The position numbers and the translations under genes are program-made. Positions 11,263 to 44,221 of a stretch of 62,127 nucleotides of DNA are shown here, one piece after another; position 1 is the first letter of the stretch, and each line of letters opens with the position of its first letter. The DNA lies in NCBI GenBank assembly GCA_964443855.1, contig CAYUEX010000001.1, positions 1 through 62,127 on the forward strand. The letters run 5' to 3'. Source of the DNA: an uncultured Halobacteria archaeon (lineage in GTDB: Archaea; Halobacteriota; Syntropharchaeia; Alkanophagales; Methanospirareceae). The notes beneath the pieces were generated by a model. That model saw only the letters and a program-made list of their open reading frames with translations. It made no database searches and had not been told where the DNA came from.

Positions 11263-11321
11263 ATAAAAAAATAGACCTGCGCCATAATTCTACACGCCTC
11301 TCACCCATATTTTCGTATGGA

Positions 11322-12359: not shown

Positions 12360-12450
12360 TTATTGTCACTTCATCTACTTCTTATAATACGGAGCCTGTT
12401 AAACCCCTCATAGGTATTCGCAAGACAATAAAGCTTTCGATCTTTAAATT

Positions 12451-21560: not shown

Positions 21561-21562
21561 TT

Positions 21563-22429: not shown

Positions 22430-23052
22430 TTCTCTTTCTCCTCAGCCCACTCGAAGATCTTCTTCATCACTTCTCGCTGCTTTATCTTCGATGGTAAAAC
22501 CCCTTTTGTCAGACCGTGACCACCAAGTGGCCCCATTTTACCTTTAAAGAACATCCGCATACCGAAACCCATGTAATCCTTCATCATTGCTTTTTGTCCC
22601 GCAACGAAAGAGCCTTCTCTCTTGGGGTAATATTCCATTGCCAGTCCTATATCATAGAGCCGCCCATACTTCTCCAACGTATGTAAGAACGCCGTTTCAA
22701 AGAGTGGTCTCGGGCTCTCTATTTTTATCTCGCCTGCTGCCTCTGCCTTCTCTGCTAACCGTCGTAGTACAGCGAGCACATCGCCAACCACCACATCTTG
22801 CGGGCATCGCGCTGTGCACGTCTGACAGATAGCACAGATCCACAAATCCGGATTGGACAGCACTTCTTTGCGCATTCCCAACAGGCTCATCTGGATTAAC
22901 TTCCTCGGGTTGTAACTTGGCACGAGTTCTGTAAGTGGGCAGCCGATGGTACAAGTGCTACACTGGTAACATGCGGTAAGGTGCTCTCCTCCCGGCTCCT
23001 TCATAATCTCGTTCTTAAAGTCCGGGTCCAGTTCCCAGGTCTTTATTGGCAT
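22426..23052 (-). CDS. hdrC: Heterodisulfide reductase subunit C
   Basis: CYQCSTCTIGCP and CAICQTCTARCP motifs. 4-nt overlap with hdrB. Confidence 0.85.
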   Translation of the reverse strand: MPIKTWELDPDFKNEIMKEPGGEHLTACYQCSTCTIGCPLTELVPSYNPRKLIQMSLLGMRKEVLSNPDLWICAICQTCTARCPQDVVVGDVLAVLRRLAEKAEAAGEIKIESPRPLFETAFLHTLEKYGRLYDIGLAMEYYPKREGSFVAGQKAMMKDYMGFGMRMFFKGKMGPLGGHGLTKGVLPSKIKQREVMKKIFEWAEEKEK

Positions 23053-23053
23053 T

Positions 23054-24118: not shown

Positions 24119-24543
24119 AGTATCTCATCCTTCATGGGATTCGGTCCCACTTCTTTAATGTGCGCTGCCAGGCTCTTCATGGTATCTGCGAATTTGACAC
24201 CCTCAGACGCGCTAATCCAGTGTAATTGGACACGATTATCCAATCCCAACTGCTTTAGAATCGTTCTCATTGCTGCTATTCTACGTCGGGAATAGAAGTT
24301 CCCTTTGATGTAGTGGCACTCCCCTGGATGGCAGCCTCCTATGAACACTCCGTCTGCTCCATTTAATAACGCCTTGAGCACAAACATCGGATCTATCCGC
24401 GCCGTGCACATAAGCCTTATTATCCGAATGTTTGGTGGGTATTTTTTCCGCGACGTCCCTGCTAAGTCTGCACCCGCATAAGTACACCAATTACAGGTAA
24501 ATCCAACGATCTTTGGCTCAAAATCCTCTTTCTCTTCTCCCAT
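24115..24543 (-). CDS. mvhD: MvhD-like (methyl-viologen-reducing hydrogenase delta subunit) protein
   Basis: Typical PKIVGFTCNWCTYAGADLAG…RLMCTARIDP…GADGVFIGGCHPGECHY. Confidence 0.85.
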   Translation of the reverse strand: MGEEKEDFEPKIVGFTCNWCTYAGADLAGTSRKKYPPNIRIIRLMCTARIDPMFVLKALLNGADGVFIGGCHPGECHYIKGNFYSRRRIAAMRTILKQLGLDNRVQLHWISASEGVKFADTMKSLAAHIKEVGPNPMKDEIL

Positions 24544-24884: not shown

Positions 24885-26648
24885 ATGAAGATGCCGTCGT
24901 TCAATCCGCATCTGATACTCCTGCACGCACCAACTGTGTACGATTTCCGCAAGTATCCACTCATGTTCGGCCCGATCGCGGATGGCGTACCCTCAACGCC
25001 CTTGTTCGAGATGTACCCGATTGGCTTCTTCTCTTTGATGGAACATCTGGCGCGAAACGGGATCGGGGTGCGAATAATCAATTTGGCTGTGCGAATGCTG
25101 AGTAGTGACGATTTCGATGCGGAAAAGATGATACAGAAGCTGAAGCCAAAGGCGTTCGGTATCGATCTCCATTGGCTGCCTCATGCGCAGGGGAGTCTTG
25201 AAGTCGCGAAGATCTGCAAAAAATACCACCCTGACATACCCGTTATCTTCGGTGGCTATTCCGCAACGTACTTCTACGACGAGTTAATTCGCTATCCAGA
25301 GGTAGATTTCATTTTAAGAGGTGATTCCACCGAAGAACCGCTGCTGCAGCTTATGAACGCGATTATTAAACAGCCCTCATCCACCGTAAGCGCCATCCCA
25401 AACCTTGTCTGGAAGGATAGCAGCGGTAAGGCTCACGCGAACCCGTTTACTTACGTTCCGAACGATCTGAATAAATCCGCGAATAATTACGTTGCTGCGT
25501 TCAAATCAGCATTGAAATACCGCGATGTTCGAAGTATGAGCCCCTGGAAAGGCTGGACCTCTCACGAATGGCTTGACTATCCTATCACGCCCGTGATTAC
25601 CTGCCGTGGATGCATCCACAATTGCACCTTTTGCGGTGGTTCTCGGAACGCACTGGCGCTGTATTGCAATCGAAAGAAACCGGCATTTCGCGATCCTCAA
25701 TTGATCGTGAAGGACATTATTAAGACCGCACGATATACTCGAGCACCCATATTTATTATCGGCGATCTCTTCCAGCCGGGCAAAAAATATGCGTACACCA
25801 TCTTAGAAGGCTTGAAAAAAGCCAAAATCACCAACCATCTCGTGTTTGAGTTGTTCAAACCGGCACCGAAGGAATTCTTTGATCGCGTGGCGGAATCGGT
25901 GACGAACTTCAATTTCGAGATATCGCCCGATAGCCATGACGAACGGGTACGAGCGGCAGAAGGGAAGCAGTACAAAAATGCGGAAATCGAGAAGAATTTG
26001 AAGTGGGCCTTGGATGCGGGCTGCAACAAATTTGATCTGTTCTTCATGATTGGACTCCCGCTACAGACCTGCGAATCGGCGATGGAGACGGTAGAGTGGT
26101 GTGGGTATCTCATGGAGAAGTTCGGCACGCGCGTTGTACCGTTTATTCTTCCGTATTCGCCCTTTATCGATCCCGGCTGCATAGCCTACGAGCAGTCGGA
26201 GAAGATGGGCTATACGATCCTTCTCAAGACGCTCGAAGAGTATCGGAAAGCGCTGTTAGCACCCAGTTGGAAATACGCCTTAAATTACGAGACAAAATGG
26301 ATGACGCGGGACGAAATTGCCGACTGCGCGTACCAAGCTGGGCTGCGCATGAACGAACTGAAGCTGAAATGCGGCTTGATCGACGAGGAGCTATTCAAGA
26401 AGACGAAAGGGCGGATAAAGCTCGCAATTGACCTTACAACAGCCGTAGATAAGATTCTAGAGACAAATGACGAAACCGCCCAGCAAGAGCGTTTGATGCA
26501 GTTGAAACCCGAGTTCGACACGCTCTTCAACTCGGTCATCAACGAGAAGGTACAACTGGATTGGCCTGCTGCGAAGCGTGGTTTGCGGATTTTACCGCTC
26601 TTAAAATTAGCACTACTCGATTCCTTAGCGATGCGACGGGGTAAATAA
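24885..26648 (+). CDS. B12-binding-domain radical SAM protein
   Basis: N-terminal Rossmann-like B12-binding region, and radical SAM motif TCRGCIHNCTFCGG. Confidence 0.75.
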   Translation: MKMPSFNPHLILLHAPTVYDFRKYPLMFGPIADGVPSTPLFEMYPIGFFSLMEHLARNGIGVRIINLAVRMLSSDDFDAEKMIQKLKPKAFGIDLHWLPHAQGSLEVAKICKKYHPDIPVIFGGYSATYFYDELIRYPEVDFILRGDSTEEPLLQLMNAIIKQPSSTVSAIPNLVWKDSSGKAHANPFTYVPNDLNKSANNYVAAFKSALKYRDVRSMSPWKGWTSHEWLDYPITPVITCRGCIHNCTFCGGSRNALALYCNRKKPAFRDPQLIVKDIIKTARYTRAPIFIIGDLFQPGKKYAYTILEGLKKAKITNHLVFELFKPAPKEFFDRVAESVTNFNFEISPDSHDERVRAAEGKQYKNAEIEKNLKWALDAGCNKFDLFFMIGLPLQTCESAMETVEWCGYLMEKFGTRVVPFILPYSPFIDPGCIAYEQSEKMGYTILLKTLEEYRKALLAPSWKYALNYETKWMTRDEIADCAYQAGLRMNELKLKCGLIDEELFKKTKGRIKLAIDLTTAVDKILETNDETAQQERLMQLKPEFDTLFNSVINEKVQLDWPAAKRGLRILPLLKLALLDSLAMRRGK

Positions 26649-26659
26649 GCCGCTTTACT

Positions 26660-27409
26660 CTACGAAGCGGGACGTGGCGCGGGACGATTAGGATCGAAAA
26701 CCCCCGCAACTTGGATTCCTATCTCGTAGAAGATAACAAGTGGGATTGCGACTATGAGCTGACTCACGACGTCGGGCGGCGTAAAGAACGCGGCGAGGAC
26801 GAACATGATCACATAGATGTATCGTCGGTATTCCTTCAGTGTCTCGAGCGGGACGAGTCCGACACGAACAAGAAAGACGAGAAAGAGCGGGACTTCAAAC
26901 GCGACGCCCATTACGAGCGTTATTATGATGACGAACGATATGAATTCATATATCGAGTACGTGGCGGTAACTCCACTCGCTGCTGACATAATGTGAAGAT
27001 ACGTGAGGACTATCGGCAGCATGAGGAAGTACGAGTAGCTTATTCCCAAAACGAAGAGAGAAAAGGCGGTAGTCACCAATATAATGAAGTGCGATTTCTT
27101 CATCGGATTCTTTATGCCAAACCGCACCTTCAACATCTTGTACACGTAGTGGAACACAAGCGGAATGACCAGTATGACGCCGATGACCAGCGCCATCTTC
27201 AATTTCAGCATGATTACTTCCACGGGCGATATATAGATGAGCGTTGCACCTTCGGGGAGGAGATCTTGCTTTATTCGCTCTAATACGGGATCCAAGAATT
27301 GAAAAGAGACCATGAACCCACCGAGAAAAACGGCGGCAATGGGTATGAGCTTTTTCTTTATCGCTACCGTTATATATCCTAACTCCTCGCTAATACTTGC
27401 CATCTTCAC
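26660..27409 (-). CDS. tatC: Sec-independent translocase TatC
   Basis: Six-TM TatC pattern (…YISPVE…, FFTPPDVVSQ). Confidence 0.85.
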   Translation of the reverse strand: MKMASISEELGYITVAIKKKLIPIAAVFLGGFMVSFQFLDPVLERIKQDLLPEGATLIYISPVEVIMLKLKMALVIGVILVIPLVFHYVYKMLKVRFGIKNPMKKSHFIILVTTAFSLFVLGISYSYFLMLPIVLTYLHIMSAASGVTATYSIYEFISFVIIITLVMGVAFEVPLFLVFLVRVGLVPLETLKEYRRYIYVIMFVLAAFFTPPDVVSQLIVAIPLVIFYEIGIQVAGVFDPNRPAPRPAS

Positions 27410-27435
27410 GTGCTCCTATTACTATGACTGGATAA

Positions 27436-28239
27436 ATGATAAAAGCTAACGCCGAAGCTAGGACGAAGACGAAAGAGAAAATGCGGATGACTGACGACGC
27501 TGCTTTCGAGTTAGATGGCCCAATAGGGGATGATGAGATACCGATACTCGAGCATGTCGAGGAACTACGAGAGAGGCTCATCGTCTTTTTGATCCCGTTC
27601 TGCATCGCCACGATCGCTGCGTATCCGTTTTCAAACATCTTACTCCGCCGCATATTATTCCATAACCTCTTCCCTGAAGAAATGGCCATGTTTGTTTACA
27701 GCCCGATGGAATGGATGAGCGTACGGCTCCTGTTCTCCTTCTTACTCGCCTTTTCTGTTACGATGCCCTTGCTCTTATTTGAGCTTTTCGCTTTTATACG
27801 ATCTGGTTTGTATCCCTCAGAGCGGAAATTCTTCCTGATGGTTGCCATCCCTTCGCTCTGCTGTTACGTTGTCGGAGCGATCTTCGCCTATTACTTCGTC
27901 CTGCCACTCATCTTCGGCTATCTCATCAACTACTCCGGCGATGTCGCACAGGTTGCGCTTTCTGCGAAGCGGATCTTCTCTCTTATTCTTTACACCGCGG
28001 TGAGCTTCGGGCTGATTTTTCAAATCCCGCTCGTAATGATCTTGGCGGTAAAAATGCAAATAGTCACGTATTCGTGGCTCAGGAATAAACGAGTGATATT
28101 CTACGGGCTAATCATCGGCATCGCGTTCTTTGTCATCGCGGACCCGACGGGAATCTCGATGATCATGGCAGTGGTCTCAATCGCGCTCTTCGAGTTCGGA
28201 TTGCTACTCTCACGCTACATCGGACGCAGACGTAAGTAG
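27436..28239 (+). CDS. tatC: Sec-independent translocase TatC (second, divergent copy)
   Basis: HVEELRERL…, six TM helices, …ADPTG…. Divergent from the first tatC. Confidence 0.85.
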   Translation: MIKANAEARTKTKEKMRMTDDAAFELDGPIGDDEIPILEHVEELRERLIVFLIPFCIATIAAYPFSNILLRRILFHNLFPEEMAMFVYSPMEWMSVRLLFSFLLAFSVTMPLLLFELFAFIRSGLYPSERKFFLMVAIPSLCCYVVGAIFAYYFVLPLIFGYLINYSGDVAQVALSAKRIFSLILYTAVSFGLIFQIPLVMILAVKMQIVTYSWLRNKRVIFYGLIIGIAFFVIADPTGISMIMAVVSIALFEFGLLLSRYIGRRRK

Positions 28240-28455
28240 AAATAACTCATAGACGCGAGTGCTTGAGTTCGTCCATCTGCTTGCTGTTCTTGACGTAATC
28301 ATGAGTAACCCCTCTCTTGCCGAGGGGATCGCAATGATCGCTGTCCTCTCGAAAGACCGTAGCAAAACTTCTCGATGCTTTTTATATCTTTTTATATATG
28401 CTCGACCAATAGTATAGGTAGAGAGAATAAGCCAAATTGTGAGGTGCAAAAAGCC

Positions 28456-28791
28456 ATGTTAGGTCCAACTGAGATGATGGTAATTGCAGTAGTAGCAATC
28501 GTTTTGTTATTCGGTGCAGCGAAGGTGCCGCAGCTTGCCAGGTCGTTTGGGCAGGCGATGGGAGAGTTCAAAAAAGCGAAAAAGGAATCCGAATTGACCC
28601 TCAAGAATTTCGAAGACTCTATAGTGGGCGACGAAAAAGTAATACCGGAAACGACCGCAAAAGCAGAGAAAAAGGATGACGAGGTCAATATACGAGAAGT
28701 AGCAGGGTATATGGGCATAGAAACTGAAGGGAAGACCGATGAGCAGTTAAAAGAGGAAGTTCAGGCAAAGATGAAAGCTGACTCCAAGTAA
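28456..28791 (+). CDS. tatA: Sec-independent translocase TatA/E
   Basis: MLGPTEMMVIAVVAIVLLFGAAKVPQLARSFGQAMGEFKKAKKE is the TatA TM helix plus amphipathic helix. ATG 28456 is preferred over the track start 28375. Confidence 0.85.
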   Translation: MLGPTEMMVIAVVAIVLLFGAAKVPQLARSFGQAMGEFKKAKKESELTLKNFEDSIVGDEKVIPETTAKAEKKDDEVNIREVAGYMGIETEGKTDEQLKEEVQAKMKADSK

Positions 28792-29271: not shown

Positions 29272-30264
29272 TTATAGCCCGATTGAGGTATAGAACGCTC
29301 CTATATTGGGCAACACTTCACCAAGGGGAACGTTCGTACCGAAAAGTACTACTCGTCCCATGATCTCACCGATGAGGACCACTACAAACAGAACGATTGC
29401 TATCATCGAAGCCATCGCCATGTTCTTCTTCGTTAGTGGCAATGCAAGTGCTATGGCGCATATGAGAGCCAAGCCTACACCTACAACCCATCGTGCCATA
29501 TAAAGTGTGGAGTATTCACCCGATAACATGCTCGTGAGCGTCTCACCCTGTGCTACTTGTGCGTATTCGGTCTCTGCAACTTCTAACATGCCAGTATGTG
29601 CGAAGAGCCCTACTGCCAGCACAATGACCATTACCAGCGAGATCCCCATCGTAATCCAGAGCATACGTGCTAAAGGCTCGTCTCCCTCTTTCTTCAACGT
29701 GTACTTCAGCGAAAGCACTGCTGCTACTGCCGTTACACCGCCCAGCAGGGCAGTAACGTAGAAGAACAGTATGATCGTCGAATGATTCAAAGAGGGCAGA
29801 GTGTATATCATGTATGCCGCCGCACTTATATAGGGAAACGTAAGTCCCACCAATGCAGCTAAGACTCCAACAGGTTTCCTGAGTGGCATGAGCTTCCCGA
29901 CTATCGGCGGTATCACTGGGAGCCATTTGAGGCTGCCGTATTCCGGCTCTAAGAGCCACATCGCGGTATATGCCACTGCTAAGATGACAAAAATCGTAAG
30001 CACCAGTACTTCTTGACTCAGTAATGATGAACTCACGTTTTTCGTCATTGTAAACATCGCTTGTATCGGTCGTGCCTCGTGAGAAAGTATACCCATCAGG
30101 CCAATAAAGGCAACTGGAACAGAGACCCATGCTCCTGTCTCAAAGAACTTCGCCTCATCCTTGCCCTTCGCGAGGAAATCTGCGATGACCATTGCTATCA
30201 GCGCACCCACTGCCATCTGACTGAACACCGTGAAGGTCACGTATGCGGTAACTGCACTACTCAT
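29272..30264 (-). CDS. DmsC/NrfD-type integral membrane anchor subunit
   Basis: About 8 TM helices. Alignable by eye to E. coli DmsC landmarks (TFTVFSQMAVGA; LSHEARPIQAMF…SSLLSQEV; LIGEIMGRVVLFG). Confidence 0.65.
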   Translation of the reverse strand: MSSAVTAYVTFTVFSQMAVGALIAMVIADFLAKGKDEAKFFETGAWVSVPVAFIGLMGILSHEARPIQAMFTMTKNVSSSLLSQEVLVLTIFVILAVAYTAMWLLEPEYGSLKWLPVIPPIVGKLMPLRKPVGVLAALVGLTFPYISAAAYMIYTLPSLNHSTIILFFYVTALLGGVTAVAAVLSLKYTLKKEGDEPLARMLWITMGISLVMVIVLAVGLFAHTGMLEVAETEYAQVAQGETLTSMLSGEYSTLYMARWVVGVGLALICAIALALPLTKKNMAMASMIAIVLFVVVLIGEIMGRVVLFGTNVPLGEVLPNIGAFYTSIGL

Positions 30265-30282: not shown

Positions 30283-30822
30283 TTACACTCGCTCTTGCCA
30301 GGCAATTGTGTTCCGAGACTTTGCATCTCTATACTGTGGTAAGATTTCGTTTATGTCGCCTCCAAGACGGGCCTTGGTCGAGCAGAACAGTGCACACCTC
30401 GGGCTGGGTTCTCTATTGTTGGCTACCGGCACAAAAGGCTGCACGCATAAGGTGCACTTGTCCATTATCCCTTCATACTCTTCAGCCGCACCCTCCAGCT
30501 CATGAGGATATTGTGGTGCGCCAAATGGGCATGCCCACCCGCAATAGCCACAGCCGATGCACTTATCCTTATCCATCAGAACGATACCGTCTTCAGCTCG
30601 CTTCTCTATCGCCTTCACTGGGCATGCAGCCTCACAGGGAGGCTCCGTGCAGTGCATACAGGAAACAGGTATGTTCTTCTCTCCAGGTCGCCCCTCGTTA
30701 ATGGTCACAATTTTCACTCTGGCTGTTCCGTGAGGAACTTTGTTCTGGTCCTTGCAAATAGCAAAGCACGCTCCGCAGTTGATGCATTTCTCAATCACGT
30801 TCAGGAATTTATAGGTTACCAT
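30283..30822 (-). CDS. 4Fe-4S ferredoxin-type electron-transfer subunit (DmsB/FdnH-like, short, no TM helix)
   Basis: Four Cys clusters: CINCGACFAIC, CMHCTEPPCEAACP, CIGCGYCGWACP, CTLC…C..FC. Confidence 0.8.
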   Translation of the reverse strand: MVTYKFLNVIEKCINCGACFAICKDQNKVPHGTARVKIVTINEGRPGEKNIPVSCMHCTEPPCEAACPVKAIEKRAEDGIVLMDKDKCIGCGYCGWACPFGAPQYPHELEGAAEEYEGIMDKCTLCVQPFVPVANNREPSPRCALFCSTKARLGGDINEILPQYRDAKSRNTIAWQERV

Positions 30823-34925: not shown

Positions 34926-35318
34926 ATGAAAGATCCAGAGTGGAAGGAAAAGAAGAAAGAACTAACAGTGCTTCTTGAAAGAGAGGCGCTATTTCTTGAA
35001 ATTACCCGGCAGTTGTCCGGACGTGTACAGAATGTATTTGCTCGGCCGGAATCTCTTGAGAAATTAGCTGAGGAGCTAAAAGCATGTGAAACTGACATTG
35101 TCAAGCGCTATTTCTTTCCAGTCGACAAAACAATAGATACGTTTACCGATAAACCCTCAATTGCTCGTGAGGAACTGATTAAAGCAAGTACGGAAGATAA
35201 AGAGAAGCTCCTTCGGTTTATCGGTGTCCTCGACAAAGAGATTATAAATAAGGAGGAGGAGATCACCGAATTAAAGAAGGAGACTGAAAAAATGCGTGAA
35301 ATGCTTACGAACGTGTAA
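34926..35318 (+). CDS. Small coiled-coil hypothetical protein
   Basis: Glu/Lys-rich heptad-like sequence; no motif recognised. Confidence 0.4.
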   Translation: MKDPEWKEKKKELTVLLEREALFLEITRQLSGRVQNVFARPESLEKLAEELKACETDIVKRYFFPVDKTIDTFTDKPSIAREELIKASTEDKEKLLRFIGVLDKEIINKEEEITELKKETEKMREMLTNV

Positions 35319-35474: not shown

Positions 35475-36773
35475 ATGAAAAATCCCTACGAGCTGAGAGT
35501 TAGACTCATGTGCGACAAAGCGGGAGATAGAAGAACGTTTACGCCCCCTAAATTACCGCGGGGAACTGCTCTCTTTATTCTGTCACTTATCCTTATTTCA
35601 GGTATTGGAACAGTCACAATTCCTCCTGTAGCGCAAGCTGCTGGTAATGAAGCGCCACCGTTTAACCTTACAAGCATCGACGGAACGACTTTCAGTCTCA
35701 GTGACTACAGAGGAACGGTTGTGGTATTAGATTTAATGGCCACATGGTGCTCGCTCTGCGATAAGGAAATGAATGAGCTCTCGCGGTTGAGAGAAGCGTA
35801 CCCCGACGTGGTGATAATGACAATATCTGTTGACCCCACAGAGACTGACGAAATGTTGAGAGACTACAAAGAGAAACATAACGCAGACTGGCTATTTGCA
35901 CGCGATACCGATAATGTCTGGGATGATAAGTACCGGGACCTTGGTTTACCAACCATTGTTCTTATTGACCCTCAGGGGCACCGAAGCTTTCAAAAGGCGG
36001 ACTTTCTGCCGGTAGAAACACTGAGTTTGGAGGTTGAAAGGGCGTATTCAGGAGGTGATGAGGAACCGGAAGAACCGGAAGAACCAACGGAACCGAAATA
36101 CGCCGTTACGGGCTTATATGTTGGAGCTTTGTTATTGGGGCTTGCGAGTTTTTTTGCTCCCTGCGCGTTTCCGCTATTGCCGGGCTACATAAGCTACTAC
36201 CTAGGGAGATACGAAGGCGGACCAACGTTGAGCGACTCAGTGAAAGCGGGAATGGCTGCAGCGACAGGAATCAATGGCATGTTTGCGTTAATAGGTATTG
36301 CGGTGGCTGTTGGAGCAACAGCAGTTAGATCGTACCTTGAGCAGCTCACACCCGGAGTTGGCTTTATTATCGTCCTTTTAGGGCTTGCAATGGTTTTTGG
36401 CAAGACCGAAATCTTCGACAAATTCGGAGGAAAACTGTCATCGTATTCATCGAAATTCGGCGGAGGGACTGGGCTCTTTGGACTCTTTATGTACGGTGTT
36501 GGCTATGGGGTGGCGTCCATGGGATGCCAGGCTCCAGTATTCATTGCACTTCTATTTCAGGGCTTAGCTGCTGGCGGATTATTGGAAGCGTTCATGCTCT
36601 TTCTGTCATTTTCTATTGGGATGGGAAGCATGATGCTTGCCGTCAGTGTAATCGTGGGAACGGCGAAGACGACAATTTTGGAACGTGTGAGAAATATGAC
36701 TCCCTACATAAACAGAGCGTGTGGAGTCATACTCATCATTGTCGGCGTATACTTCCTATTAGAATCTTTTTGA
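35475..36773 (+). CDS. Fusion protein: N-terminal anchor + extracytoplasmic TlpA/ResA-like thioredoxin domain (WCSLC) + CcdA/DsbD-type transmembrane electron-transfer domain
   Basis: VVVLDLMATWCSLCDKEM. Acidic PEEPEEP linker. CcdA TM Cys motifs FFAPCAFPLLPGY and MGCQAPVF. Confidence 0.75.
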   Translation: MKNPYELRVRLMCDKAGDRRTFTPPKLPRGTALFILSLILISGIGTVTIPPVAQAAGNEAPPFNLTSIDGTTFSLSDYRGTVVVLDLMATWCSLCDKEMNELSRLREAYPDVVIMTISVDPTETDEMLRDYKEKHNADWLFARDTDNVWDDKYRDLGLPTIVLIDPQGHRSFQKADFLPVETLSLEVERAYSGGDEEPEEPEEPTEPKYAVTGLYVGALLLGLASFFAPCAFPLLPGYISYYLGRYEGGPTLSDSVKAGMAAATGINGMFALIGIAVAVGATAVRSYLEQLTPGVGFIIVLLGLAMVFGKTEIFDKFGGKLSSYSSKFGGGTGLFGLFMYGVGYGVASMGCQAPVFIALLFQGLAAGGLLEAFMLFLSFSIGMGSMMLAVSVIVGTAKTTILERVRNMTPYINRACGVILIIVGVYFLLESF

Positions 36774-36916
36774 CGCTGACACGATGGAGGCAGGGATTGA
36801 TCTTAGTTCGACTTACAAACTGCCTGTATTCTACACTACAGAATCAACAAGTTTACTACAATAGGTAAATTTATATAGCATAAACGTTCAATAGTCTAGC
36901 GAGGTGAACACTAAAA

Positions 36917-37927
36917 ATGGACAAAAAGAAAGTTGCCTCGGTGATTTTGATAGGTTCGATTCTGGTTGTCCCACTCATGGTTTCTAGTGTAGTATCGGCA
37001 GAGCGTATTGACATATCGGTGGACGAAGCGTATAAAATGCTACAGAAAAACCCTGACGACATTATTCTGCTGGATACCAGACCCGAGCAGATATACACTT
37101 CTGAGCACATAACGGGGCCAAATTATCATGTAGTGAACATACCCCTGAGTGTCGATACTACTGCTTTTGAAAGCGATATCGAGGAATTGGACAAGTCGAA
37201 AATTATTATCGCGTACTGTCAGGCGGGTCGTGCGAGTCAAGTAGCAGGCGATTTACTCCTCCAACACGGTTTCGAGCGCGTTTATACTATGGTTGGGGGG
37301 ATCAATGCATGGAAAGAGAAATATCCGACGACGCTCACATCGACTCAGCCCACGAAAGCACCAATAGGTGCTATTAGGGCACCCTCGTTTACGCTTACAC
37401 GCATAGATGGAACGCCGTTCAGTCTCAGTGATTACCAAGGAAAGGTCGTGGTATTGACTCTGATTCTAACAACCTGTCATCTGTGCCAAGAAGAGATGGG
37501 AGAACTCGCACAGTTACGACAAGCGTATCCCGACGTCGCTATTCTAACCGTGTCTATAGATCCGTTGGAGACAGACGAAAATCTGAGAAGTTTCAAAGAG
37601 AAATATAACGCAGACTGGACATTTGCACGGGATACCAGCAAGGTTGCTTCGCGGTATCAAGGCTACGTTTTGGCCACACCAACCATTGTTGTTATCACTC
37701 CTGAGGGGTACATAAGTTTCCGGAAAGTAGATGTTGTCCCATTAGAAGAGCTTAAGTCAGCAATTGAGAGAGCTTACCAGGAAGAGGGAGAACTGATACC
37801 GAAAGCAACACCGACTCCCGAGGAAGGGCAGATTCCCGGATTCGAAGCGACGGCGACGGTAGCGATATTCTGCATTCTTGTCGTATCGCAGTGGCTGGAG
37901 AGAAAAAAAAGAGAAAGAGGTAAGTAG
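36917..37927 (+). CDS. Fusion protein: signal peptide + rhodanese domain (active-site CQAGRAS) + TlpA-like thioredoxin domain (TCHLC) + PGF-CTERM anchor
   Basis: IIAYCQAGRASQ…GGINAW (rhodanese). VVVLTLILTTCHLCQEEM (thioredoxin). C-terminal IPGFEATATVAIFCILVVSQWLERKKRERGK. Confidence 0.75.
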   Translation: MDKKKVASVILIGSILVVPLMVSSVVSAERIDISVDEAYKMLQKNPDDIILLDTRPEQIYTSEHITGPNYHVVNIPLSVDTTAFESDIEELDKSKIIIAYCQAGRASQVAGDLLLQHGFERVYTMVGGINAWKEKYPTTLTSTQPTKAPIGAIRAPSFTLTRIDGTPFSLSDYQGKVVVLTLILTTCHLCQEEMGELAQLRQAYPDVAILTVSIDPLETDENLRSFKEKYNADWTFARDTSKVASRYQGYVLATPTIVVITPEGYISFRKVDVVPLEELKSAIERAYQEEGELIPKATPTPEEGQIPGFEATATVAIFCILVVSQWLERKKRERGK

Positions 37928-37981: not shown

Positions 37982-38474
37982 CTATGGGGATACGGAAAGT
38001 TGGTTCGCCGATCTTTCCTGTTTTATCTTTGCAATCTCTTCTGGCGTACCGAAAGCTAACGCACCGGTCAAGCACGTGTGAACACATGCAGGGTCTAAGC
38101 CTTTATCGATCCTGGGGTAGCACGATATACATTTTTGCATCAACCCATCGCTTCCGATTTGAGGTACTGCAAAGGGGCATGCCATTACGCAATATCCGCA
38201 ACCGATACACTTGTCCTTGTCGTTCAGAACGATACCATCTGCTCGTTGATATATCGCACCCATCGGACATGCTGCCATGCAATAGGGACGTGAGCAATGG
38301 AAGCATGCGATCGAGACAAAATCTCTGGACGGGTTAGGATAGTTTCCTCCCTCCAGTTCAAGTCACTCTCCTCCATCTTACTCCAGTCTCAACGTCGTTT
38401 TGCTGTTTACAGGCGACTTCACAGGCCCGGCAATTAATGCACCGGGCTCCATCAAACAGAAATTGTTGTACCAT
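37982..38474 (-). pseudogene. PsrB/DmsB-like 4Fe-4S subunit interrupted by a 1-nt frameshift at about 38358-38363
   Basis: An ATG 2 nt after the upstream stop gives MVQQFLFDGARCINCRACEVACKQQNDVETGVRWRRVT*. The next frame continues LELEGGNYPNPSRDFVSIACFHCSRPYCMAACPMGA… into track ORF 37982-38278. Joined, this reads as a canonical 4-cluster ferredoxin of about 163 aa. Confidence 0.65.
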
Positions 38475-38476
38475 CT

Positions 38477-40711
38477 TTATCCCTCCTTATATATCCTTAC
38501 AAATGTCTCATCCATTGGGCATACCCCGCCTATTGGATCTGCACCGGCTTTGATGAAATCGCCGTCGTTGAGGCCTTTTCCGTAGGCTAACGTGAGATCA
38601 GGTGATGTATGCCCGAATCCATGCAGCATGAAAACGGTATCAGGTCTTATTTGTTCGGTTACCTTAGCTTTTATCTTGCCCTTACTGAGTTCGTTTTCAA
38701 CCCAGATGTATTCCACATTCATGATCCCTAAATCCATAGCGGTTTCTCTATTTATCCAGAGTTCATTTTCTGAGCAGATTTCGTTCAGGTACGCATTGTC
38801 AAACGTTGCGGGATTTGCATGGGTATGCACTGCGATATGTCCGTGCAGTAGTCTAAACATGCCATTGGGAGCTTCTGTTGGTGGCAAAAATGTTGGTAAT
38901 GGGTCAAATCCATTTGCCTCAAGTTTCTTCGAATAAAGCTCTATTTTACCGGTAGGCGTGTTTATTTTTACCCCTTCAAGCCCTTTCAGCTCAGGACTTA
39001 TACCAGAAGACCAAATCGAATTCTCTTTGAAATACTCTTTGTTAATTCCAAGTGGCTTGAGTTGAGCATTGATGTAGTCGTCTAACTCGAAGTCGAAATA
39101 ATTACCGATCCCTACTTTCTCAGCTAACTCTTTAAGTATCCAGAACCCCGGCTTTGACTCGTACATCGGCTCTACACAAGGCTGGCGTAAAGCGACCTTC
39201 GGCGATTTCCCTGTAATGACCATCGGTGGCTCATATCTCTCTAAATAGGTACACTCCGGTAGGATAACGTCAGCATACCAGGCTGTATCGCTTGGTAATA
39301 TATCAATAGCTACGAGCAAATCGAGTTTCTTGAACGCTTCGATAACTCTATTTCTATCTGGCATCGCAAGCAACGGGTTAGAACGATACACAATCAAGCC
39401 CTTTACCGGATAGGGGTCTTCATTTATGATTGCATCGGGCAATAACTGCCAGAGCCCGTGGCTTGCGGGAACCAATGGGTATTTGTCTGGGATACCATCC
39501 ACCCGCTTAGCGGTGATCTCAGGATATGCTGGTGGTTTTATGTCACCCAGTGCTACTCCTCTTAAATAAAATAGCCCTCCTGGCTTATTTATGTTTCCAA
39601 CCAGCGCATTCAGAATTAATATTCCTCTACTTGTCTGTGCCTCGTTCGCGTATCCCTTTGGGTGCCAGTTTGGATGTGCTACCGCAGGCTTTGTAGTAGC
39701 GAACTCCACGGCAATCCTCTCAATCTGCGCTGCAGGAACACCAGTAACTCCTTCTGCCCATTCTGGTGTATAATCACCGATAAACCCTTTTAGCTCTTCA
39801 AAGCCATACGTGTATTTAGTCAAGAAGTCCTCGTCATAGAGTCCTTCTCTAATAATAACATTCATCATCGCCAGGACGAACGCCAGGTCCGTTCCAGGTT
39901 TTATTGGTATCCACTCGTCCGCCTTTGAAGCAGTAACCGTAAACCGGGGGTCTAAATATACCAATTTCGCTCCTTTCGTAATAGCAGCGGATAAAGCTTG
40001 AACGGACGAATTTGCCGGAGTTTCAAAGCTGTTTCTGCCAAAGAGCATGATATACTTTGCGTTTGTGTAATCAACGGCATTACCAATATGCGCACCTAAT
40101 GTTGTAGCATCCGCTACGATCCTCGAGATTTTGCAAGTCCCAAGAATAGAGAAGAAATTAGGAGAGCCTAAGGCTTTCTGGAACCTCGATAATAAAGGCG
40201 TCATTAAGCTGCACATTTGTACCATTGCGATGCTCTCTGGGCCGTATTTCGCCTCAATATCTTTAAGCTTCCCCGCCGTGTAATCTAATGCTTCACCCCA
40301 GGTTGCGCGCTTCCAGCCACCCGCACCTCTCTCACCGGTCCGTATAAGTGGGTATTTAACCCTGTTTGGATTATATATCACCTGTTCTGCCGAGTTTCCG
40401 CGTGCGCAGAGTTTCCCTTTTGAGTGTGGCTCCTGTGGATTTCCTTCTATCGATTTTACTACTCCTCCATCACATGTTACTTTTATTCCACATCTGAATG
40501 GGCACATCTCGCATATACTATACACAACACTTTCTGTTTCTAAGGGAGCCGCAATTGCTGGTTCAATCAACGTACCGAACTGCTTCATCGGATAAGCGCC
40601 GACATTGCCGATTCCGCTCAGCGCAGCTGCTGTTCCTAAAGCTGTTAGTTTGGTAAAAGTTCGCCTTGATACTCTTGCGCCACAACAATCAACATTTGTT
40701 CGTACATCCAT
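38477..40711 (-). CDS. Tat-exported molybdopterin oxidoreductase, polysulfide/thiosulfate/tetrathionate reductase (PsrA/PhsA)-like
   Basis: Signal VSRRTFTKLTALGTAAALSG. CEMCPFRCG FS0 motif. …KGKLCARGNS…, …GSPNFFSILGTCKIS… resemble Wolinella PsrA landmarks. Confidence 0.75.
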   Translation of the reverse strand: MDVRTNVDCCGARVSRRTFTKLTALGTAAALSGIGNVGAYPMKQFGTLIEPAIAAPLETESVVYSICEMCPFRCGIKVTCDGGVVKSIEGNPQEPHSKGKLCARGNSAEQVIYNPNRVKYPLIRTGERGAGGWKRATWGEALDYTAGKLKDIEAKYGPESIAMVQMCSLMTPLLSRFQKALGSPNFFSILGTCKISRIVADATTLGAHIGNAVDYTNAKYIMLFGRNSFETPANSSVQALSAAITKGAKLVYLDPRFTVTASKADEWIPIKPGTDLAFVLAMMNVIIREGLYDEDFLTKYTYGFEELKGFIGDYTPEWAEGVTGVPAAQIERIAVEFATTKPAVAHPNWHPKGYANEAQTSRGILILNALVGNINKPGGLFYLRGVALGDIKPPAYPEITAKRVDGIPDKYPLVPASHGLWQLLPDAIINEDPYPVKGLIVYRSNPLLAMPDRNRVIEAFKKLDLLVAIDILPSDTAWYADVILPECTYLERYEPPMVITGKSPKVALRQPCVEPMYESKPGFWILKELAEKVGIGNYFDFELDDYINAQLKPLGINKEYFKENSIWSSGISPELKGLEGVKINTPTGKIELYSKKLEANGFDPLPTFLPPTEAPNGMFRLLHGHIAVHTHANPATFDNAYLNEICSENELWINRETAMDLGIMNVEYIWVENELSKGKIKAKVTEQIRPDTVFMLHGFGHTSPDLTLAYGKGLNDGDFIKAGADPIGGVCPMDETFVRIYKEG

Positions 40712-40771
40712 TTTTTTGCCTCCGTTCTACCTACAAAATTTACATGTACGTATACTAAAAGGTGGGATGAG

Positions 40772-40779
40772 TATATAAA
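40772..40779 (-). promoter_or_regulatory. TATA box (TTTATATA on the coding strand) about 60 nt upstream of the ATG
   Basis: Exact octamer read from the sequence. Confidence 0.3.
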
Positions 40780-40812
40780 CCTAGAGGGTTTTTACTTAAT
40801 AGTGGATATACG

Positions 40813-40882
40813 TGAACAAAATTCTATTTTTTTAAAACGAATAAATACAAAAATGAACAAAATCCAATTTTATTGAACAAAT
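40813..40882. promoter_or_regulatory. Three direct copies of TGAACAAA(A)T upstream of the TATA box, next to the Lrp gene
   Basis: TGAACAAAAT at 40813-40822 and 40854-40863; TGAACAAAT at 40874-40882. Start-to-start spacing is 41 and 20 nt. A partial TGAACA lies at 40967-40972. Confidence 0.35.
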
Positions 40883-40975
40883 GTAGACAAATAAAGGTGT
40901 CTGGTAGATACTTTAGCCTGAAGTAGCTATAAATAAACTAAAACATCAAAAAAAACTATCGAGAAATGAACACGC

Positions 40976-41416
40976 TCACAACTTGACCTTAAGCTCTTCT
41001 TTCAGTATCTTGAGCACGACTTCTGAATTCACACTTTCCACACCTTCGATTTCTTTTATCTTCTCAATAAAAGCCCCACATCTCCCCCGTTCAGGGCACT
41101 TAGTGATAGCCATGAGGTCAAAATCACCGGTTATGTGGTAAATGCTACAACTTCCTTCCAGTTCCGCTATCTCTTTCCCCACCTTTTCGATACCACATCC
41201 CGACTTGGTTTTTATCCTCGTGATCAAGGTGGCCATACCGATCTCAGCTGTATTGAGGATCGTAGTATATTCACAGATAATCCCTTCTTCACCCAGCCTT
41301 TTTACTCTATCGCTCACCGTAGCAGTACTGATTTTTATCTTCTGCGCAATCTTCGTGAAAGATTGACGTGCATCCAACTGGAGTTCTCCCAATATTTTCT
41401 TATCTAATTCATCCAT
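40976..41416 (-). CDS. Lrp/AsnC-family transcriptional regulator
   Basis: N-terminal HTH (LDELDKKILGELQLDARQSFTKIAQKIKISTATVSDRVKRL) plus a RAM/ACT-like C-domain. Confidence 0.85.
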   Translation of the reverse strand: MDELDKKILGELQLDARQSFTKIAQKIKISTATVSDRVKRLGEEGIICEYTTILNTAEIGMATLITRIKTKSGCGIEKVGKEIAELEGSCSIYHITGDFDLMAITKCPERGRCGAFIEKIKEIEGVESVNSEVVLKILKEELKVKL

Positions 41417-41503: not shown

Positions 41504-42166
41504 CTACACAGTCTCTAATAAATCGCTGATCACCGTATCGTCCAATAGAATGAAGCCTTTTGTGAGCTTTGCAATGCCTTTAAAGAAATCAGCTATCTCA
41601 TACGTGTAGATCGCATCGCAGTAATTCGGCACCCATTTCAACATATGGTCATCGAGAAATTCTCTCTGTAGTTTGAGACATTCTCCCAATCGTTTTTGAG
41701 TGGCCGCAGATAATTCCTCCTCGCAGAGATAATGCATAAACTTGAGTTCAAATCCGATGTGGTCTTCGGGCTCTTTATACTCTCGTGATTTCACGATACC
41801 TGCTTTCCTGTACGCTTGCTTCACCGCCACCAGCGACTCACCCATCCGCCTTCCGCTCACCCAAGACGCCTCGTAAGGCTCCACCGGGGGTCTAAAGGGT
41901 CCGATGAACAAAAGGGTATATTCTCCTACCAGATCGTCATACAAAGCATCAATATCCTTGCCTTTGCTCTTCTCCATAAACTCGTTTAATAAACGGAAAC
42001 CCTCGAAAAGCTCTGTATTTGTGTCTAACGATTTCAGCTCCTGAAACTGGAACTTTCCGTTCACTAAATCCGCTGCAAGTTCTCGTGCCGGCTCTTCCAC
42101 ATACATCCGAAACAAAAAGGCATAAAAGTTTCTTCTTGTCTCCAAAATTGCTTCTATTTCGCTCAT
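41504..42166 (-). CDS. TorD/DmsD/NarJ-family redox-enzyme maturation chaperone
   Basis: Size and pattern (R.NFYAFLFRMY.EEP…, …L..EYT.LFIGP…PYES.W…, DHI..EL.FM) fit this family. Located within a Mo-enzyme island. Confidence 0.65.
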   Translation of the reverse strand: MSEIEAILETRRNFYAFLFRMYVEEPARELAADLVNGKFQFQELKSLDTNTELFEGFRLLNEFMEKSKGKDIDALYDDLVGEYTLLFIGPFRPPVEPYEASWVSGRRMGESLVAVKQAYRKAGIVKSREYKEPEDHIGFELKFMHYLCEEELSAATQKRLGECLKLQREFLDDHMLKWVPNYCDAIYTYEIADFFKGIAKLTKGFILLDDTVISDLLETV

Positions 42167-44221
42167 TTACTCATTCTCCAATTTTTCTAATGACATCTCA
42201 ACGGCTTTTGCCGGTCTGCACTTTTTACAATATCTGAGCAGGTCTAACCGCTCCCCTATGTTAAGCTCTCCCTCGCCTTCGCCTTCTTTCAATATCTGCC
42301 CCATTCGTTCAAATGCGGATTTCGGCATAAATAGTTCTCCACATCCCGCGCATGCGATAAACTCGACTTCAACCAGTTTTTTGCTTCCTTCTTCAGCCAG
42401 TTGAGAAAAGTCAAGCACCGGCTTTAACGCAATCGCTTCTTCCGGGCAGGCTTGCTTACACATACCACAAGCAATGCAGTGCCCGTATACAAAATCAATC
42501 TTAGTATCGTCCTTACTCAGCGCGTTTGTCGGGCACATGGTCACACACGCATTGCAGAGTGTGCACTGCGAATTGATAGAGAGATCCGCGAACGGATAAG
42601 ACGTATTTTCCTCTATTAACGTTGGACGTACGCCAGTCTTCAGACGAAGGGTCTGTATTAAGCTCAGCAGAATATCCCGTTTCGGTTTGGTAAAATCGAT
42701 CTCCATTGGCTTCTTCTTTCTGATAGACGAAGGACTGAGCTGGGTAACGAAATTAGTAACTTTCTTAGCGAAATCCTCCACGTCGAACTGGGCATCACCC
42801 AGCAATAGTACCCGGTCTCCCAAATAGAAGGCGGATAACGTCTTCTGCGCAAATGTTACCGCAGATTCGATCTGTTCATGGTGGCTGTTCTCGCATTCCC
42901 AGAGAATAACCCCATCAGCTCCGCGTTCAAACGCACTGAGTATATGGGCCTCTGAAACCATACCAACGGACGGTACGAAGAGCGGTACTACTGCGGGATA
43001 ATGAATCTTCTTTCTGCCAGTGGCATTTAGCTTTTCGACGTTCTCTTGATCTGTGAATAAGAGAACTTTTGGGCGTAAATCCTCGGATAATAAGCTTTCT
43101 ATTTGTGAGTACAGCAATTGATTGGGATAGTCACGCAGTTGCGGAACTGATAATGGACATAAAGAAGCGCAGAGTCCGCAGCCAAGACATCGCACATCGC
43201 TGAACACCATTTTGACACCATCTCTCATGATGGCCTCGTGAGGGCAGGGTAAACAATACTCACACCCAATTAATTTGCTCCTACCACTTGCGCACCGTTT
43301 CAACTCTAATTCTAAATACTTTTCCTTCCCTATTTCGCCCAAATTAGAAACTAACTCCGGTGCTTTCCGTAATGCATCTTCGTAATCGTCAGCTTTATAG
43401 ATACCAAAGTAGTTAGGTCCATGCCAGTCCTTATCAATCACAAGAATCTGCCCTACGTGTAACACCTCCTGGTTGTGGAATTCAATAGCACCTGTTGGAC
43501 ATACTTTAACGCAATCGCCACATTCGTCACAAGCCTCGTCAATCGTGTATACCGCATCGTAGTGTACCGCATTTTTCGGGCACGCGTCAACGCAAAGGCC
43601 GCAGGAGATACACTTCTCTAAATCTATGTCGCGCTCGATCTCGACGTCAAAGTCACCAATCTCTCCCGTTATGCCTTTAAGCGAGCCAATATGGAGTTCC
43701 GGCTCAGCACACCACTCGTGCGCATTCTCCGTCAGCAGATGGACGTAAGCCCCGGTGGAAAGACCTTTCGCAACTTCTAACGCTCCGTTTTCCTCGGACC
43801 CTATCACTAACACATCATAACCCACCTTCAAATCGATCTTTTCAGGCCTCGGAAGTGTTTCTTCCATTTCACCATAGCTGATAGCGGCTTTAATCAGGCT
43901 CTTCGTTTTTTCCGTACCTTCTTTCTTTCCGTGTACCCAACCGCAGTGTTCCCTGAGGTTGATAAGGTAAGTATCACAGCCAAATCCAGATGCTACCCGT
44001 TCAAAGATGCGCCTCTTCTCTGTACACGCCGCTATGACTATGGCATCAAGATTCAATCGCCTGACGTCGTCTACAATATAGTCCAAGTCTCTCTGGCAGA
44101 GCTGATCAACCGTCTCAACGATCTCAACTTCCTTCTTTATGCTCTTTCTAACGTTTCTAAAATCTATGTCCATAGTGCTGTTGCACGTGCAGAGAAAAAC
44201 ACCCAGTTTCATGTATTTCAC
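42167..44221 (-). CDS. Cytoplasmic polyferredoxin with HdrA-insert-like N-terminus and MvhD-like domain
   Basis: LGVFLCTCNSTMD start. At least six CxxCxxCxxxCP-type motifs. An MvhD-like stretch (VLLFTDQEN…GADGVILWEC). No signal peptide. The stop abuts the TorD-like gene. Confidence 0.65.
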   Translation of the reverse strand: MKYMKLGVFLCTCNSTMDIDFRNVRKSIKKEVEIVETVDQLCQRDLDYIVDDVRRLNLDAIVIAACTEKRRIFERVASGFGCDTYLINLREHCGWVHGKKEGTEKTKSLIKAAISYGEMEETLPRPEKIDLKVGYDVLVIGSEENGALEVAKGLSTGAYVHLLTENAHEWCAEPELHIGSLKGITGEIGDFDVEIERDIDLEKCISCGLCVDACPKNAVHYDAVYTIDEACDECGDCVKVCPTGAIEFHNQEVLHVGQILVIDKDWHGPNYFGIYKADDYEDALRKAPELVSNLGEIGKEKYLELELKRCASGRSKLIGCEYCLPCPHEAIMRDGVKMVFSDVRCLGCGLCASLCPLSVPQLRDYPNQLLYSQIESLLSEDLRPKVLLFTDQENVEKLNATGRKKIHYPAVVPLFVPSVGMVSEAHILSAFERGADGVILWECENSHHEQIESAVTFAQKTLSAFYLGDRVLLLGDAQFDVEDFAKKVTNFVTQLSPSSIRKKKPMEIDFTKPKRDILLSLIQTLRLKTGVRPTLIEENTSYPFADLSINSQCTLCNACVTMCPTNALSKDDTKIDFVYGHCIACGMCKQACPEEAIALKPVLDFSQLAEEGSKKLVEVEFIACAGCGELFMPKSAFERMGQILKEGEGEGELNIGERLDLLRYCKKCRPAKAVEMSLEKLENE

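Follow-up and report, generated by a model that had tools for sequence, protein, structure and literature searches.

The DNA analysed here is a stretch of 62,127 nucleotides (hereafter the window, always meaning this stretch in full) from an uncultured archaeon of the Methanospirareceae (NCBI GenBank assembly GCA_964443855.1, contig CAYUEX010000001.1). It carries two adjacent genes on the forward strand, each encoding a TlpA-like thioredoxin domain joined to a different partner. Gene A encodes a thioredoxin-CcdA fusion (Trx-CcdA) and gene B a rhodanese-thioredoxin fusion (Rhd-Trx) with a PGF-CTERM-like sorting tail, and both lie beside the genes of a formate dehydrogenase (Table 1). A sequence-only reading of this DNA had earlier described the pair from its open reading frames (ORFs). 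Both ORFs were recovered at the positions in Table 1, and the WCSLC, TCHLC and CQAGRAS motifs and the two CcdA membrane cysteines were all found.

In gene A, a positively charged, cytoplasmic N-terminus precedes a single transmembrane anchor helix (aa 31-49), an extracytoplasmic TlpA/ResA-like thioredoxin domain (aa 56-169), a Glu/Pro linker and the CcdA membrane domain (aa 214-432). The thioredoxin domain matches the Pfam families AhpC-TSA (57.7 bits), Redoxin (44.1 bits) and Thioredoxin_8 over residues 56-169, all above threshold. Its top matches in PDB are ResA and TlpA, and it falls below the NCBIfam cut-offs for ResA (64.9 versus 170), TlpA (47.1 versus 230) and DsbE (20 versus 359). The membrane domain matches DsbD_TM (PF02683) with 37.2 bits against a cut-off of 27.1, aa 216-428 covering profile positions 6-215 of 219, and has a weak match to Thermus CcdA (5VKV; E 4e-4), in which residues 7-199 are aligned and the 5VKV helices are spanned. 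Invariance of the relay cysteines, the cis-Pro and the PGF motif was judged over alignments of 28-51 homologues; C230 and C351 are unchanged in alignments of 29 to 51 sequences, and the CxxC and the cis-Pro of the TPT motif are invariant in the thioredoxin domains of the gene A family. Hydropathy, the PF02683 match and the invariant C230 and C351 confirm the N-terminally anchored thioredoxin and the CcdA domain with both transmembrane cysteines that had been described beforehand. Its six helices are borne out in part, as five are clear in the hydropathy profile and the sixth is a weaker, Gly-rich helix around C351. CcdA and DsbD hand reductant on to thioredoxins of the TlpA/ResA type.

The product of gene B begins with a Sec signal peptide that looks cleavable (aa 1-28, VSA|E), followed by the rhodanese domain (aa 34-135), a low-confidence linker (aa 141-155), the thioredoxin domain (aa 154-277), a Thr/Pro/Glu linker and the PGF tail (aa 307-336). 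Pfam matches are Rhodanese (PF00581; 53.8 bits, cut-off 22.2), AhpC-TSA (66.6 bits) and Redoxin (51.2 bits). The rhodanese matches 6MXV, Sud (1QXN; E 4e-9) and GlpE (1GMX) in PDB and stays below the orthologue cut-offs for GlpE (50.5 versus 102) and PspE (29.4 versus 102), while the thioredoxin has ResA and TlpA as its top PDB matches and lies below the corresponding NCBIfam cut-offs (50.3 versus 170 and 33.0 versus 230). In the six-residue rhodanese loop, no variation is seen at C101, G104 and S107 across 28 to 42 sequences. The Trp before the CxxC of the thioredoxin has been lost in most members (TTCHLC in 21/42, TWCHLC in 5/42). The same tail layout is seen in all 40 full-length homologues, in which a Thr/Pro/Glu linker leads to an invariant PGF, then a hydrophobic helix and finally a basic end. 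The Pfam PGF-CTERM model (PF18204, cut-off 18.8 bits) gives no match for the tail of gene B and 17.8 bits for that of the homologue P0026; its precomputed matches include two homologues of p216, a neighbouring protein described below, and two ANME-1 (anaerobic methanotrophic archaea, group 1) rhodanese paralogues. The rhodanese with a CQAGRAS loop and a PGF-CTERM signal that the sequence-only reading had proposed is thus present in its loop and its PGF layout, and the Pfam model for the signal does not score its own tail. Structural modelling, which that reading had also called for, was carried out with AlphaFold2 (AF2): both domains fold confidently, the linker is disordered (predicted local distance difference test, pLDDT, about 30) and the relative position of the domains is not fixed (predicted template modelling score, pTM, 0.44). 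Given the anchor helix in gene A and the signal peptide and post-PGF helix in gene B, as seen in hydropathy, both thioredoxins and the rhodanese are predicted to be on the outer side of the cytoplasmic membrane.

Over 153 residues, the two thioredoxin domains share 56% identity (gene A 46-196 against gene B 141-292; BLASTP, E 6e-52), which is far beyond chance and agrees with the alignment and shared strings reported earlier for the adjacent genes. Their CxxC motifs differ (WCSLC and TCHLC) and may, as the sequence-only reading suggested, have different redox potentials. In a neighbour-joining tree (no bootstrap), the Rhd-Trx thioredoxins form one clade nested among those of the ANME-1 Trx-CcdA proteins. 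By this nesting, the two domains are true paralogues, and the thioredoxin of gene B arose by duplication of its neighbour's domain within ANME-1. The Trx-CcdA family comprises about 55 clusters at 90% identity, with C92, C95, C230 and C351 invariant, and the Rhd-Trx family about 41 clusters, with C101, G104, S107, C187, C190, cis-Pro 255 and PGF invariant. Named homologues of both proteins come from metagenome-assembled genomes (MAGs) of Methanophagales/ANME-1, including ANME-1-THS, Methanophagaceae and Methanospirareceae, which assigns the window to ANME-1, and as judged from these sequences both fusions form ANME-1-restricted families. Rhd-Trx was found in 7 species genomes of the scan, a count limited by the search patterns used. 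The strain of the window also occurs in freshwater, lake, marsh and estuary metagenomes.

The domain-architecture search proposed in the sequence-only reading was run exhaustively and without profiles over 1.84 billion representatives. Both fusions indeed form families, but the architectures themselves are not unique to ANME-1. Four other proteins with a rhodanese and a thioredoxin spanned by one alignment (P0158, P0172, P0186 and P0196; 30-37% identity) are N-terminally anchored and lie on short contigs among unrelated neighbours (thymidylate synthase, ThiS); their thioredoxins fall far outside the ANME-1 clade, and the fusions arose independently. Trx-CcdA fusions are widespread in other archaeal metagenome contigs, some with extra domains (700-800 aa), and the contexts of the distant ones (long multi-domain proteins, high-GC contigs) held nothing informative on partners and no cytochrome genes nearby. 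Within ANME-1, one lineage (L001/L002/L003/L036) carries a tandem duplicate of Rhd-Trx (L001 10001-10873 and 11320-12303), each copy about 62% identical to gene B. In a full-text literature search, no paper paired ANME-1 with rhodanese, and the sole paper pairing ANME-1 with CcdA concerns sheaths and names CcdA only in a reference.

Gene neighbourhoods were gathered from nine encoding-contig look-ups, a species-genome scan and a metagenome scan, and were annotated by tblastn with the window proteins. The conserved block consists of dmsC-, fdhB- and fdhA-like genes and p216 on the minus strand, p130, Trx-CcdA and one or two copies of Rhd-Trx on the plus strand, and the genes for a TorD-like chaperone and an MvhD polyferredoxin again on the minus strand. 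Rhd-Trx follows Trx-CcdA in 10 of the 12 informative ANME-1 loci. In every far-reaching locus (10 distinct lineages), fdhCBA is found no more than about 4 kb away on one side and the gene for the TorD-like chaperone on the other, and the block is kept in L006 though its outer flank differs, with RIO1 and other genes replacing the tat genes of the twin-arginine translocation (Tat) system. The FdhA-like subunit aligns with the solved FdhA 9VAP_A at 828 bits and on this similarity is a genuine formate dehydrogenase relative. A TorD-like chaperone belongs functionally with a Tat-exported molybdoenzyme, so the pair sits between the structural and the maturation genes of one system. The link to a molybdenum enzyme implied in the sequence-only reading survives in altered form: the pair is tied to a molybdo/tungsto-enzyme, and the conserved partner is the Tat-exported FdhABC cluster with its TorD-like chaperone, not the adjoining PsrA-like enzyme. 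In the available portions of a survey of ANME genomes (Chadwick et al. 2022, PMC9012536), a membrane-bound formate dehydrogenase that has a DmsC-like anchor is noted in five ANME-1 genomes and as sporadic in ANME-1. With its Tat-signal FdhA, FeS subunit and DmsC-like anchor, the window cluster is the one described in those portions, where Trx-CcdA, Rhd-Trx, p216 and p130 go unmentioned.

Table 1. Features of the Trx-CcdA/Rhd-Trx pair and its surroundings in the window.
Feature	Position	Strand	Basis or remark
Trx-CcdA fusion (gene A), 432 aa	35475..36773	+	ORF listing, Pfam, hydropathy, alignments
CxxC of gene A thioredoxin, WCSLC, C92 and C95	35748..35759	+	unchanged in 29 to 51 members of the family
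CcdA first membrane cysteine C230, motif APCAFPLLPGY	36162..36164	+	invariant; within PF02683 match
CcdA second membrane cysteine C351, motif MGCQAP	36525..36527	+	invariant
Rhd-Trx-PGF protein (gene B), 336 aa	36917..37927	+	ORF listing, Pfam, hydropathy, AF2, alignments
Rhodanese catalytic cysteine C101, six-residue loop CQAGRAS	37217..37219	+	invariant
CxxC of gene B thioredoxin, TCHLC, C187 and C190	37475..37486	+	cysteines invariant
PGF-CTERM-like sorting tail IPGFEATATVAIFCILVVSQWLERKKRERGK	37835..37927	+	P307, G308, F309 invariant
p216, secreted five-helix-bundle protein, 216 aa	34069..34719	-	conserved neighbour; invariant C68 and C116; PGF-like tail (PGY)
p130, charged, probably cytoplasmic, no family match	34926..35318	+	first gene of the p130, Trx-CcdA, Rhd-Trx string; kept in most loci
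FdhA-like molybdopterin subunit, 939 aa	30838..33657	-	twin-arginine signal, ARICHSTT Cys-His active-site motif, Cys-rich loop QCRTDCSVFDCEDCQ
FdhB-like four-cluster ferredoxin subunit	30283..30822	-	FDH3 beta 166 bits, below cut-off 240
DmsC/NrfD-like membrane anchor of formate dehydrogenase	29272..30264	-	PF04976, 55 bits
Two divergent tatC and one tatA	26660..28791		upstream of formate dehydrogenase cluster in most loci, not all
TorD/NarJ-family Tat-proofreading chaperone	41504..42166	-	directly downstream of, and convergent with, Rhd-Trx where the Psr insertion is missing
Polyferredoxin with MvhD domain	42167..44221	-	co-oriented with TorD-like gene, conserved in every locus
Variable insertion: PsrA/PhsA-like reductase (38477-40711), psrB (37982-38474), AsnC-type regulator (40976-41416)	37982..41416	-	

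The Cys-rich loop of FdhA (residues about 617-632) is absent from 9VAP and holds four, two or one cysteines depending on the ANME-1 lineage; it is missing in the divergent FdhA of L008, a locus that also lacks p216 and p130. A gene for a B12-binding radical SAM protein (24885-26648) precedes the tatC/tatA genes. In two lineages, a cysteinyl-tRNA synthetase gene lies on the opposite strand between Trx-CcdA and Rhd-Trx (L004 8457-9818; L008 8412-9509), so the two genes need not be co-transcribed. In L023 (9505-10645), p216, p130 and Trx-CcdA were lost in a deletion of ~3 kb, together with all of Rhd-Trx but a 37-aa remnant; a remnant of the p216 tail also persists.

The p216 family is restricted to ANME-1 (39 clusters), and most of its members have a CxxC. 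Its only Pfam match is PGF-CTERM, in two members, and the tail of the window p216 reaches 15.7 bits on PF18204, below the cut-off. An AF2 model gives a confident five-helix bundle (pLDDT 82), for which a Foldseek search of PDB returned no match with E < 0.01 and no functional lead. In three clusters (P0021, P0036 and P0039; 479-491 aa), p216, rhodanese, thioredoxin and PGF tail form one chain, whose p216 part is 56% identical to the window p216 over residues 1-193. At the loci encoding these fusions (L109 246-1721; L110 922-2361), the p216-p130 segment has an inverted orientation, with no Trx-CcdA gene between, and the genes for the TorD-like protein and the polyferredoxin come next. This fusion is an argument for joint action of p216 and Rhd-Trx on the cell surface.

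Taken together with its position, the domain content of the pair suggests, at somewhat less than an even chance, a surface relay that reduces sulfur-loaded cysteines outside the cell as part of the Tat-exported membrane-bound formate dehydrogenase cluster. Its electron-transfer steps are all drawn from domain families and conserved cysteines. A cytoplasmic thioredoxin would reduce the CcdA membrane cysteines C230 and C351, which would in turn pass the reductant to C92/C95 of the fused TlpA-like thioredoxin on the outer side of the membrane. This thioredoxin would then reduce its paralogue in the secreted, PGF-anchored gene B protein (C187/C190), and the latter would resolve a persulfide (or a sulfenate or mixed disulfide) on rhodanese C101 of the same chain, so that sulfide is released or the sulfur passed on and the C101 thiolate is regenerated. 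The net activity would be that of a thioredoxin-dependent sulfurtransferase or persulfide reductase in a sulfidic pseudo-periplasm. Position and gene fusion point to p216, with its two invariant cysteines, and the exported FdhABC complex as likely clients; where a Psr-type reductase is inserted alongside, the rhodanese may also serve Psr in the manner of Sud. The core of the sequence-only reading, a CcdA conduit linked to a surface-anchored rhodanese through paralogous thioredoxins, is retained in this proposal, as its domain logic fits the invariant cysteines and the gene order kept in 10/12 loci.

The module, as far as its sequences can be compared, is a variation on known CcdA-thioredoxin reducing pathways and thioredoxin-dependent rhodaneses. 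Like bacterial CcdA (5VKV) with ResA, CcmG or TlpA, it has a CcdA with two membrane cysteines and a tethered TlpA-like WCxxC thioredoxin with a cis-Pro on the outer face. However, thioredoxin and CcdA are here one polypeptide with an extra N-terminal anchor, the scores lie far under the ResA, TlpA and DsbE cut-offs, ccm or res genes do not adjoin the pair, and the downstream acceptor is a rhodanese-linked paralogue. A membrane conduit fused to a periplasmic partner domain is shared with DsbD and ScsB, and the bacterial NCBIfam family TsoB ('rhodanese/DsbD fusion-like selenoprotein') combines a rhodanese with a DsbD-type core; both window proteins match TsoB weakly and in part (56.5 and 33.9 bits, cut-off 805). 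In all three, domain order and content differ from those in ANME-1, where a separate, PGF-anchored protein carries the rhodanese together with a thioredoxin of its own. The CcdA paralogue SoxV and the thioredoxins SoxW and SoxS service the sulfur carrier SoxYZ, which likewise gives a dedicated CcdA-type conduit and periplasmic thioredoxins for a cysteine-based sulfane-sulfur carrier outside the cytoplasm. Unlike the ANME-1 carrier, SoxYZ is not a rhodanese, and the Sox system is bacterial, sulfur-oxidising, unfused and without a link to formate dehydrogenase. The persulfide of E. coli GlpE is resolved by thioredoxin as the sulfur acceptor, whereas here the thioredoxin is covalently fused. The polysulfide-sulfur transferase Sud of Wolinella (1QXN), which acts with PsrABC, is a single-domain rhodanese with a six-residue loop, located outside the cytoplasm beside a Psr-type molybdoenzyme. 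In contrast to Sud and the thioredoxin-dependent rhodaneses GlpE and PspE, the ANME-1 protein carries a PGF-type anchor, has Psr only as an occasional neighbour, and scores under the GlpE and PspE cut-offs. For Pelobacter carbinolicus, it has been proposed that reductant reaches polysulfide from CcdA by way of periplasmic thioredoxins (PMC3543383).

Several observations weigh against the proposed relay. The neighbourhood comparison for which the sequence-only reading had asked upheld the gene order, but the outer housekeeping genes (MCM, HAD, AIRS, CofH) are equally syntenic, so part of the conservation reflects relatedness and order alone overstates functional coupling. In L023, FdhABC and PsrAB are intact, p216 and Rhd-Trx survive as mere remnants and Trx-CcdA is gone; this population, at least, can therefore do without the module. 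Elsewhere (one MAG and two metagenome contigs), Trx-CcdA is placed amid ammonium transporter and carbamoyl-phosphate synthase genes, with Rhd-Trx still beside the TorD-like gene. R105 of the rhodanese loop is not conserved and varies between R, G and S. Since the pTM of 0.44 and the linker pLDDT of about 30 leave the rhodanese-thioredoxin geometry unfixed, intramolecular transfer is without structural support. None of the RNA runs searched for the window stretch holds it.

The main rival to the relay is the standard reductant pathway of cytochrome c maturation, in which Trx-CcdA would be an archaeal CcdA plus ResA/CcmG and Rhd-Trx a second apocytochrome-directed reductase, the two keeping the CxxCH motifs of the ANME-1 multihaem cytochromes reduced; the rhodanese might in addition strip persulfides from CxxCH cysteines in sulfidic water. 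ResA, TlpA and CcmG are the best family matches of both thioredoxins, source annotations name homologues cytochrome c biogenesis proteins or CcmG, and ANME-1 are rich in c-type cytochromes, on whose maturation Trx-CcdA could act in trans. The displaced Trx-CcdA genes are also what a general factor might show, as they stand away from the formate dehydrogenase cluster in some genomes. According to the available part of PMC9012536, ANME genomes carry CcmABCEF without CcmH, and no dedicated thiol reductase is described. However, none of the annotated window ORFs belongs to a Ccm or Res family, and no ccm gene and no ORF with at least two CxxCH motifs was found in the 62-kb window or in 14 related loci. 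The equivalog scores lie far under their cut-offs (ResA 65 versus 170, DsbE 20 versus 359), every informative lineage has the pair embedded with fdhCBA on one side and the TorD-like gene on the other, and related Trx-CcdA fusions on other archaeal contigs have no cytochrome genes nearby. Rhd-Trx, moreover, is present in only 7 of the scanned species genomes, subject to the search patterns used. The sequence-only reading had named standard cytochrome c maturation components with no link to molybdenum enzymes or sulfur as the outcome that would overturn it. What surrounds the pair is a molybdo/tungsto-enzyme, with neither a ccm gene nor a multi-CxxCH ORF nearby. On balance, cytochrome c maturation is considered unlikely, though less so than the explanations discussed below, and the automatic labels "cytochrome c biogenesis protein" and CcmG are probably misleading for this Trx-CcdA/Rhd-Trx family.

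In the window, an insertion containing the FeS subunit gene psrB, a PsrA-like gene and an AsnC-type regulator separates Rhd-Trx from the TorD-like gene. The PsrA-like protein (744 aa) aligns with Thermus PsrA (2VPW) at 514 bits and reaches 589 bits on the PhsA model, below its cut-off of 694. A Sud-like role could potentially explain the module: the rhodanese would bind polysulfide sulfur and pass it to this PsrA-type polysulfide/thiosulfate reductase, with the thioredoxins only keeping the rhodanese active. In keeping with this, the enzyme is a close relative of Thermus PsrA and also scores on the PhsA model, Sud (1QXN) is among the matches of the rhodanese domain, only about 55 bp separate gene B from the convergent psrBA, and the insertion sits beside Rhd-Trx in four lineages. 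The three genes, however, occur in these four lineages only (the window, L004/L013, L023 and L029/L030) and are lacking in at least six others with the pair, including the very close L014/L041, whose flanking proteins are 92-95% identical. The psrB gene of the window has its frame shifted by a single additional base near 38360, so that it reads MVQQFLFDGARCINCRACEVACKQQNDVETGVRWRRVT up to a stop and then ELEGGNYPNPSRDF onwards in another frame. An assembly error was rejected as the cause, as the base recurs in contigs from two independent runs of the strain, and two related strains lack it and have an intact frame. The psrA gene is split into two ORFs in L004, L005 and L013 (L004 11668-13910), in both NCBI and Logan assemblies, and is intact in L023 and L029. 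No PsrC anchor was found in the window by ORF listing or Pfam, and L023 retains intact PsrAB after the loss of Rhd-Trx. Instead of a rhodanese standing consistently with a complete PsrABC, as in a Sud-Psr module, the loci show four lineages with the insertion, a psrB frameshift, a split psrA and no PsrC. From these sequences the PsrAB module looks unstable across lineages, and Psr was rejected as a conserved partner in favour of a variable insertion that is decaying in two lineages. This distribution leaves room for Sud-like service in some strains and not for an ancestral role, and sulfur delivery to Psr is accordingly a poor candidate for the function of the module as a whole.

Further secreted rhodaneses are present in ANME-1. 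Stand-alone forms (L107 6001-6765; L108 6001-6642; P0078), to which the rhodanese of gene B is about 50% identical, are encoded among giant CARDB, DUF3344 and dockerin surface proteins, and one paralogue joins cohesin, rhodanese and PGF-CTERM. ANME-1 also carries sheath proteins, and the sheath hoops of related archaea are disulfide-linked (PMC11576556). The pair might accordingly be a general envelope disulfide reductase or isomerase for sheath hoops, S-layer and giant surface proteins, with no specific tie to formate dehydrogenase, and the sheath proteins, the surface rhodanese paralogues among the giant proteins and the wide spread of Trx-CcdA fusions in archaea are all in agreement with such a role. 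It would, however, leave three things without explanation, namely why the pair keeps its place between fdhCBA and the TorD-like gene, why p216 and Rhd-Trx have become fused, and why a rhodanese whose catalytic cysteine never varies should be needed, and is regarded as improbable.

A more specific version of the link to formate dehydrogenase is that p216, Trx-CcdA and Rhd-Trx are an extracytoplasmic maintenance system for the Tat-exported Mo/W enzyme. The rhodanese would re-insert the labile sulfido ligand of the cofactor, the thioredoxins would give reducing conditions or reduce an inhibitory disulfide of FdhA (e.g., in the Cys-rich loop), and the enzyme would in either case regain its activity on site, on the outside of the cell. 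This is a speculative extension, held at low probability. In the available text of a 2026 review (PMC13653126), re-sulfuration is described only as a chemical process, with sulfide under reducing conditions, and the literature consulted held no case of a molybdoenzyme sulfido ligand being repaired by an enzyme outside the cytoplasm.

The surface relay favoured here bears mainly on ANME physiology and on how exported molybdoenzymes are maintained. Much of the methane produced in anoxic sediments is consumed by ANME-1 archaea. Among the few candidates for a route that would pass their electrons to partners by a diffusible carrier is the exported formate dehydrogenase of the membrane-bound type (PMC9012536). 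Its gene cluster gains three or four uncharacterised genes, with a thioredoxin-fed anchored rhodanese and a helical protein as a predicted surface module. This raises the hypotheses that the module preserves, outside the cell, the activity of an enzyme that depends on a sulfido ligand and is sensitive to oxygen and sulfide, or that it handles sulfane sulfur at the ANME surface. The case would also illustrate the recruitment of archaeal CcdA-type conduits to tasks other than cytochrome c maturation.

The gene content of the window is archaeal and methanogen-like, with MCM carrying an archaeal winged helix, Hdr-like genes, FrhB, MvhD, CofH and Ftr. Positions 18846-24543 (minus strand) encode a 904-aa double HdrA-like flavoprotein, HdrB-like (CCG domains) and HdrC-like proteins, an FrhB-like protein and MvhD, an arrangement corresponding to the unusual ANME Hdr type treated in PMC9012536. 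The stretch 10001-12400 has a GC content of 0.37, against about 0.47 elsewhere, and may be foreign DNA; its ORFs at 10435-11262 and 11322-12359 (minus strand) have no Pfam match. Some contigs with the ANME-1 block, recognisable by an archaeal MCM and 85-95% identity to window proteins, are filed in public MAGs as Desulfobacteria bacterium (L014), Bathyarchaeia archaeon (L015) and Methanosarcinales archaeon (L023). The filing under a sulfate-reducing bacterium and Bathyarchaeia is probably a binning error.

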